A stretch of 64,000 bases of DNA from Candidatus Saccharimonadia bacterium (GCA_025449535.1 JANWJF010000001.1:741136-805135); one strand, 5' to 3'. Numbered from the stretch's first letter, positions 24,516 to 24,566 are shown. Translations and numbers: made by a program. Notes: generated by a model not told the origin, from the sequence alone.

Positions 24516-24566
24516 TAGATCAGATTACCTGATCTAATTGACAGATCAGTGTTTCTGATCTAAAAT
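24516..24566 (+). promoter_or_regulatory. consensus sigma70 promoter TTGACA(24538-43)-N17-TAAAAT(24561-66) with two 7-5-7 palindromes TAGATCAG-n5-CTGATCTA (24516-36) and AGATCAG-n5-CTGATCT (24543-61)
   Basis: Read directly; the second palindrome occupies the spacer; GATC inside each half-site; low-GC context. Confidence 0.6.

Follow-up and report, generated by a model that had tools for sequence, protein, structure and literature searches.

The window, by which the whole stretch of DNA analysed here (64,000 nucleotides) is meant, carries a gene for an orphan DGQHR-domain protein preceded by a predicted promoter and four regularly spaced GATC sites. It is otherwise a housekeeping region (tyrS, rpoB, rpoC, fusA, secY, rpoA, gyrAB, pheST, and clpP) of a Patescibacteria MAG. 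The features of the locus are as follows.

24496-25981, plus strand: accessory low-GC cassette with the promoter, the operators, the DGQHR gene, and the DUF2188 gene, delimited by composition and by comparison with a sister genome (L224)
24517-24535, no strand: putative operator O1, AGATCAG and CTGATCT about ATTAC, from direct reading and pattern search
24531-24547, no strand: putative central box GATC-TAATTGACA-GATC, made up of cores 2 and 3 around the −35 hexamer, from comparison with the two closest homologous loci (L004 and L005) and with homologue promoters
24538-24543, plus strand: predicted −35 hexamer TTGACA, from promoter search, kept in L004 and L005
24543-24561, no strand: putative operator O2, AGATCAG and CTGATCT about TGTTT, from direct reading and from pattern and promoter searches
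24561-24566, plus strand: predicted −10 hexamer TAAAAT, from promoter search, TAAnnT in the window, L004, and L005
24586-24589, plus strand: Shine-Dalgarno-like GAGG, 4 nt 5' of the ATG, from direct reading
24594-25676, plus strand: gene for an orphan DGQHR-domain protein of 360 aa (DndB-like, ParB/Srx-related), a proposed autorepressor, assigned by TIGR03187 and Pfam DndB
25708-25950, plus strand: gene for a DUF2188 protein of 80 aa, a PADLOC candidate (PDC-S16), 31 bp 3' of the DGQHR gene

Direct reading and pattern search placed AGATCAGattacCTGATCT at 24517-24535 and AGATCAGtgtttCTGATCT at 24543-24561. Both are exact 7-5-7 palindromes, and their centres (24526 and 24552) are 26 bp apart, just as the earlier note had described them, one upstream of the promoter and one in its spacer. 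O1, which extends to a 10-5-10 palindrome (24514-24538), holds GATC cores 1 and 2 and is centred at about −47 relative to the predicted start. O2 holds cores 3 and 4, occupies the 17-bp spacer, and has one base in common with each hexamer. The four cores start at 24518, 24531, 24544, and 24557 with a strict 13-bp period; all have the form R-GATC-Y, and together they bracket the −35 hexamer and fill the spacer. Because the half-sites alternate in orientation, the cores make up three overlapping inverted-repeat GATC-N9-GATC boxes (24518-24560). At the observed density of GATC (282 sites in 64 kb), about 2.4e-5 four-site arrays with a 13-bp period are expected per window. Three of the 4 GATC-N9-GATC pairs in the window belong to the promoter array.

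The predicted promoter, TTGACA-N17-TAAAAT, agrees with the σ70 consensus at 11 of 12 positions with a spacer of 17 bp. Neither strand of the 64-kb window has another match that reaches 10/12 (threshold, at least 10/12 overall and at least 5/6 within the −35 hexamer), which bears out the near-consensus promoter named in the earlier note. A match of at least 11/12 occurred somewhere in the window in 14% of composition-preserving shuffles, so that the score taken alone is only mildly unusual; the argument for the promoter therefore rests on position and conservation, not on the score alone. The hexamers, a spacing within 16-18 bp, and the distance to the start codon are those of a σ70-type promoter, as predicted from the sequence. 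The ATG of the DGQHR gene is at 24594, leaving a gap of 27 bp from the −10 hexamer, and transcription would start at about 24573-24575.

When up to two mismatches were allowed, the palindrome had 3 matches in the window against 0.12 expected, a number reached in 0 of 100 shuffles. Two are the exact copies in the promoter. The third (49900-49918, AGGTCAG and CTGACCT about CTTCG) lies inside the ORF 49233-50240 and is itself a perfect 7-5-7 palindrome, differing from the operator by a symmetric A-to-G/T-to-C change that gives a GGTC/GACC core; it could be a chance match. A search for further copies had been proposed in the earlier note. The exact palindrome was found in none of 223 other loci and occurred solely in three copies of the window's own genome.

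GATC as such is over-represented in the window (564 strand-hits, compared with 377 ± 19 in dinucleotide-preserving shuffles, or 1.5-fold), which argues against a GATC-cutting restriction enzyme in the host. Since bare GATC is common in the genome, a single site would be insufficient for operator specificity, and phasing and cooperativity would be needed.

The DGQHR protein, its neighbour, and the cassette

The 360-aa protein scored 108.4 bits with TIGR03187 (cut-off, 58.85) and 62.5 bits with Pfam DndB (PF14072; cut-off, 29.1), and thus belongs to this family. The DGQHR motif corresponds to residues 110-114, of which D110, Q112, and R114 are invariant among 38 homologues and G111 and H113 are kept in at least 90%. 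On the other hand, the score with the DndB-type equivalog TIGR04172 (dnd-linked DGQHR) was 57.7 bits against a cut-off of 450, and the PADLOC DndB model gave an E-value of only 2e-4. DpdB of the 7-deazaguanine Dpd system was the best PADLOC match and, after TIGR03187, the second-best NCBIfam match with a full-length alignment; unlike DpdB, however, the window protein reached only 70.9 bits with NF041060 (equivalog cut-off, 300) and has no dpdA/dpdC context. No dnd, ssp, or dpd gene, including DndC/D/E, was detected by PADLOC among all 62 window ORFs, and DpdA is absent from the 64-kb window. A weak DpdF match appeared beside matches to the Cas3, HamB, and BrxH helicase models; it was not tied to a particular ORF and is most likely a generic helicase match. 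Orthology with DndB or DpdB was rejected because the scores are far below the equivalog cut-offs and dnd and dpd neighbours are missing, and the gene product is accordingly called an orphan DGQHR protein. In the portion of PMC10164549 drawn on here, DpdB is presented as the ATPase partner of DpdA and not as a repressor.

No classical DNA-binding domain was called in the 360-aa protein by Pfam or NCBIfam. In the AF2 model (pLDDT, 94; pTM, 0.88), the N-terminal part is predicted to be mixed α/β, with the strands mostly within residues 1-140, and the C-terminal half mainly helical. A Foldseek search of the PDB with this model gave no significant match (the top entry was the ParB-like PadC, with a probability of 0.51, and SspE ranked 46), and a profile search of PDB sequences gave no match.

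The downstream gene matched PDLC04941 (E = 3.6e-20) and PF09954 (68.7 bits; cut-off, 22) and conformed to the profile of PDC-S16, a candidate for phage defence. Judging from its position, DUF2188 is probably co-transcribed cargo of the DGQHR gene. L004 and L005 lack it and have DUF2779/Cas4-like genes instead.

The cassette is 1.49 kb long and has a GC content of about 47% in a 64% GC genome. Homology with the sister genome stops at 24495 and restarts at 25982; on either side, the L224 phosphatase is 91% identical and the EF-G gene is 83% identical in nucleotide sequence. In L224, the same slot (5832-7278) is filled by unrelated low-GC cargo, namely a 174-aa ORF and a DUF6602 protein with matches to NucC/PD-DExK nuclease models. 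These breaks in the alignment mark off 24496-25981 as an accessory cassette that occupies a variable slot of the defence type. The mobile cassette includes the operators, which therefore move together with the gene. The cassette was most likely acquired horizontally as a self-contained unit, and it represents a compact promoter-operator-regulator arrangement situated, in a reduced genome, at a defence-type hotspot within the str (rpoC-fusA) region.

The histidine-phosphatase-family gene on the left (23623-24507) has its stop codon at most 10 bp 5' of the operator region. The slot between this gene and fusA forms a variable hotspot in the normally compact rpoC-rpsL-rpsG-fusA region. Four ORFs in the vicinity, 21841-23004, 23051-23590, 28110-28928, and 29557-31905 (387, 179, 272, and 782 aa), had no Pfam, NCBIfam, or PADLOC match.

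The phased array at homologous loci

Only two close relatives of the 360-aa protein were found in 5.8 billion clusters, encoded at L004 and L005 (58% and 56% identity). A 17-bp block, GATCTAATTGACAGATC, is invariant in the window, L004, and L005. GATC1 and GATC2 are also invariant in both, GATC1 being 13 bp further upstream of the block, whereas GATC4 is retained in L005 and lost in L004. The 17-mer had one match in viral contigs, which lies within a coding region and was dismissed as chance; the DGQHR homologues in viral contigs are only 24-29% identical.

A scan with one genome per species supplied 80 further loci for the comparison. The same scan counted 279 loci with a relative at a tblastn E-value of 1e-3 or less, a figure that includes distant DGQHR proteins and pools all clades. 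The 80 loci belong to CPR groups, Chloroflexi, Alpha- and Gammaproteobacteria, Actinomycetota, Trueperaceae, Bathyarchaeia, Thermoplasmata, and Freyarchaeota. Phased GATC arrays upstream of the gene (at least two GATCs within 320 bp) were present at 35 of 83 loci, with 121 sites in all, and the loci that bear them come from CPR bacteria, Chloroflexi, Proteobacteria, Actinomycetota, and Asgard archaea. About 58% of the homologue loci have no recognisable array; among these was counted the nearest 40%-identity relative (L061), whose −35 hexamer is preceded by just one GATC.

Within 150 bp of the start codon at the homologue loci (n = 82), adjacent GATC pairs at a distance of 13 bp occurred 25 times against 0.46 expected. 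The corresponding numbers were 9 against 0.44 at 14 bp (n = 82), 8 against 0.52 at 21 bp (n = 82), and 8 against about 0.8 at 26-28 bp. The expected numbers were taken from the remainder of the same loci; because pairs in one array are not independent, Poisson p-values for these counts overstate the significance and per-locus Fisher tests are safer. GATC was enriched 2.06-fold in the upstream regions, in contrast to other palindromic 4-mers of two GC and two AT, which were depleted (0.55- to 0.8-fold), and a purine preceded the core (R-GATC-Y) in 77% of cases compared with a background of 44%. Arrays with at least three in-phase GATCs lay directly 5' of a DGQHR gene in 22 of 27 cases and elsewhere in 5.

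The array is also placed consistently with respect to the promoter. A GATC at most 5 nt before TTGAC was seen at 16 of 82 loci and in 1 of 410 control upstream regions (p = 1e-12), and GATC-N9/10-GATC around TTGA/TTGC in 13 of 82 homologue promoters and 1 of 410 controls (p = 4e-10). Even when no motif was specified, chains of three or more copies of a 5-mer, phased at 12-14 bp, were found at 18 of 82 loci against 9 of 437 in the comparison (p = 1e-9). The array thus accompanies DGQHR homologues across phyla, and this argues that the promoter and operators belong to the DGQHR gene, as the earlier note had assumed. That note had further pictured two operators served by one dimeric repressor. 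The two palindromes stand, but the layout proved too narrow in that the conserved unit is a phased R-GATC-Y array with a pitch of 13-14 bp; O1 and O2 were correctly called, whereas the most widely conserved box, GATC2-N9-GATC3 in the middle (24531-24547), was missed.

The reverse search, from motif to gene, was carried out in metagenome contigs. GATC-N9-GATC-N9-GATC-N9-GATC occurred at at least 120 loci (L086-L205), and a DGQHR protein was present at 0 of the matches listed. By eye, almost all of the listed matches are tandem or near-tandem 13-bp repeats in which the spacers are repeated as well, and a few are irregular GATC clusters. This search is uninformative about the association of array and gene. 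Tandem repeats swamp searches for phased GATC, and a useful search must therefore demand variable spacers.

Both spacing and core sequence follow the protein. The spacing tracks the protein tree, being 13 bp in the clade of the window and in several others, 13/14 bp in one alphaproteobacterial clade, 21 bp in L010/L019, and 26-28 bp in L008, L009, and L080. As to the cores, L058 has four GGWCC sites at 13/14/13 bp with the last at the −35 hexamer, L042 has GGTCC-TTGACAC-GGACC, and L054, L082, and L085 have mixed GATC and GGWCC boxes. Alternating GGTTT/AAACC is found in the archaeal L016/L017, TAATC/GATTA in L053/L062, and GATG-N9-CATC surrounding the −35 hexamer in L018, L025, and L027. That the geometry is held while the core drifts with the protein fits the prediction for a cognate pair of protein and operator.

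At some loci the DGQHR gene is accompanied by a second or third paralogue, which precedes it in L024, L029, and L030 and follows it in L021 and L074. These loci are mostly without GATC arrays.

Candidate binders and the probable mode of control

All-against-all clustering of every ORF revealed no neighbour family shared by more than 6 of the 83 loci. The 147 nearest neighbours were distributed over 125 Pfam families of at most five members each, and there is no regulator family among the 25 most frequent neighbour Pfam families. A same-strand ORF lies within 150 bp downstream at only 29 of 82 loci, and the downstream ORFs are varied and DNA-acting (DUF2779/Cas4-like, UvrD helicase, Schlafen AlbA_2, HhH-GPD with HTH, HNH, and DUF3047). 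Neither the clustering nor the Pfam census revealed a conserved partner gene or regulator beside the DGQHR gene. With no neighbour conserved, the DGQHR protein stands alone as a candidate binder that is inherited along with the array.

Taken as a whole, together with cooperative cores and tuning by a nucleotide, it is likely that the DGQHR protein represses its own gene through the GATC array. The earlier note had suggested this protein as the repressor, and the suggestion gains from the co-inheritance of the array, the want of any other conserved neighbour, a core that follows the clade, and the precedent of DndB. In the proposed mechanism, the near-consensus σ70 promoter would drive the DGQHR gene and probably the DUF2188 gene. 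The DGQHR protein would bind the four R-GATC-Y cores with cooperativity, assembling into a dimer of dimers or a short oligomer, and cover about −55 to −12, so hiding the −35 hexamer and the spacer. RNA polymerase would thereby be excluded, and the resulting negative autoregulation would hold the protein level constant. By analogy with DndB, DNA binding is probably tuned by a nucleotide bound in the putative ParB-like pocket of the DGQHR domain.

The autorepressor of dndBCDE in Salmonella enterica Cerro 87, DndB (DptB), combines a DGQHR/ParB-like domain with palindromic boxes in its own promoter. From what the available part of PMC4507180 reports, Salmonella DndB footprints two TACG-N10-CGTA regions in this promoter, with the 4-bp cores 14 bp apart; mutations in the cores weaken binding, and the operon is derepressed when DndB is lost. 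The boxes lie over and upstream of the core promoter (excerpts of PMC4507180 and PMC10853773). The autoregulation is described as ATP-modulated in work cited in the accessible text of PMC10853773, and a DndB-like protein is stated to bind ATP and GTP via a ParB-CTPase fold in the section of PMC12704722 used here. The window promoter also contains more than one short-core palindromic box at a spacing near 14 bp, in the form of its three overlapping GATC-N9-GATC boxes. This is nearly the DndB geometry, known here from sequence, the distance being 13 bp in the window promoter and 14 bp for several clades. Unlike the DndB system, the window is without dndCDE, the core is GATC and not TACG, and the gene is solitary and usually monocistronic; in place of two separate boxes, there are four contiguous in-phase cores.

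To our knowledge, DndB is the only DGQHR protein for which a DNA-binding or regulatory role has been demonstrated, and solely within dnd operons. Autoregulation of a DGQHR protein via palindromic boxes is therefore already known for DndB. What appears to be new is a solitary DGQHR clade with a phased short-core array around the −35 hexamer across bacterial and archaeal phyla, together with natural specificity variants. Neither the solitary clade, the phased array, nor the core variants are described in the portion of the literature on DGQHR and DndB (promoter/repressor, ParB/ATPase) on which this comparison draws.

ParB-fold or partition-type proteins that act on short-repeat arrays overlapping promoters, and that are autoregulatory, are represented by KorB-OB, the ParR-parC iterons, the ParG tetramer boxes, and the heptads of the ω protein. 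Arrays of the ParB-family or centromere type consist of direct or inverted repeats, and specificity arises from cooperative binding to phased short units. Unlike these systems, the window has no ParA partner and no plasmid context, and both its core and its pitch are different. With this separate solitary clade, each gene would carry its own putative operator, designed as phased palindromic cores of 4-6 bp with a pitch of 13-14 bp around the −35 hexamer, from candidate-phyla bacteria to archaea. Given the predicted site, the pitch, and the natural specificity variants, the way in which DNA is read by ParB-fold DGQHR proteins becomes directly testable.

GATC sites in or near the −35 and −10 sequences are familiar from the pap, agn43, and IS10 transposase promoters, where Dam together with Lrp, OxyR, or hemimethylation is needed. 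It may be asked, with the earlier note, whether methylation of the four GATC sites, at N6-adenine (Dam-type) or otherwise, sets the output of the promoter. Such methylation might alter the binding of RNA polymerase or of a repressor, and the cassette would in this way sense the methylation state of the cell or of DNA entering it; such a switch would be compatible with binding by the DGQHR protein. R-GATC-Y is indeed the conserved core at the 35 array-bearing loci, and DNA methyltransferases are among the commoner, though still rare, neighbours: an N6_N4 methyltransferase-Mrr cluster occurs in the flanks of 4 loci and a C5 methyltransferase cluster in the flanks of 6, and N6_N4_Mtase and C5 DNA_methylase account for 4 and 2 matches, respectively, among the 147 nearest neighbours. 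The island of L058, with two BglII-family endonucleases, Vsr, and GmrSD, points in the same direction. However, in sister clades the 13-14-bp geometry goes with cores other than GATC (GGWCC, GGTTT/AAACC, TAATC/GATTA, and GATG-N9-CATC), and GATC methylation therefore cannot be a general requirement. The array also differs from those of pap, agn43, and IS10 in being specific to one gene family and strictly phased. Moreover, none of the ORFs of at least 120 aa in the window, which represents about 8% of the genome, contains the [DNS]PP[YFW] motif IV (N6A/N4C), no restriction-modification gene was found near the cassette, and Dam is not usual in some lineages within the range of the DGQHR family. 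A methylation switch is thus considered unlikely.

A more far-reaching possibility, to which we give a similarly small chance, is that the DGQHR protein goes beyond autorepression and is a ParB-like nucleotide-gated clamp or sensor for which the phased R-GATC-Y sites are the loading site, and which might respond to modification of GATC, or of the core particular to each clade, and release downstream effectors. If so, the locus would amount to a minimal 'ParB plus parS' module in which a single gene reports foreign or differently modified DNA. The effector would be DUF2188 here and the DUF2779/Cas4-like nuclease, HNH, Schlafen, or UvrD helicase elsewhere, and a new class of one-gene regulatory or defence sensors would extend from CPR bacteria to Asgard archaea.

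It is also conceivable that another protein, either DUF2188 or a host regulator, binds the array and that the DGQHR protein is merely regulated cargo. DUF2188 lies in the same cassette, and in the part of bioRxiv 10.1101/2022.04.27.489752 consulted it is an uncharacterised family linked to defence operons under dedicated regulators. DUF2188 was nevertheless rejected as the repressor because L004 and L005 keep the operator block with DUF2779 in its place downstream, and the array-bearing loci have no conserved neighbour family. A host factor that spans CPR bacteria to Asgard archaea and acts on one promoter is implausible, and control upstream regions from those genomes are without the motif (1/410). 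We consider a binder other than the DGQHR protein highly improbable.

There is hardly any chance that the inverted repeats act as nucleic acid, whether as a hairpin terminator or attenuator of phosphatase read-through or as a recombination site for insertion of the cassette: the RNA of 24500-24580 has a nested fold of −27.5 kcal/mol (z = −4.4), a terminator-like site is listed at 24529-24549, and the array lies 10-60 bp inside the left cassette boundary, but the stem is not followed by a U-tract, most homologues have same-orientation GATCC/GATCT repeats that are unable to form a hairpin, and conservation goes with the −35 hexamer and not with the cassette ends or the upstream gene. An intrinsic terminator was rejected, since the strong stem lacks a U-tract and the hairpin potential is not conserved.

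Two kinds of neighbourhood deserve mention in their own right. L058 (1-9077) is a defence island of Actinomycetota in which Vsr, a BglII-family endonuclease, GmrSD, the DGQHR gene, and a second BglII-family endonuclease are found. One homology cluster lies next to the DGQHR gene at four loci (L005, 65-1621; L037, 5226-6812; L038, 5311-6897; and L042, 2756-3748); in its L005 member, an N6_N4 methyltransferase is joined in one protein with an Mrr-type nuclease domain, and the other three were grouped with it by BLAST only. The idea was raised, as a speculation on specificities that are not inferable from sequence, that the operator cores correspond to the sites targeted by restriction-modification enzymes encoded nearby, as at L058 and L005. 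Three of the four loci with the methyltransferase-Mrr cluster have GATC operators, and L042 has GGWCC.
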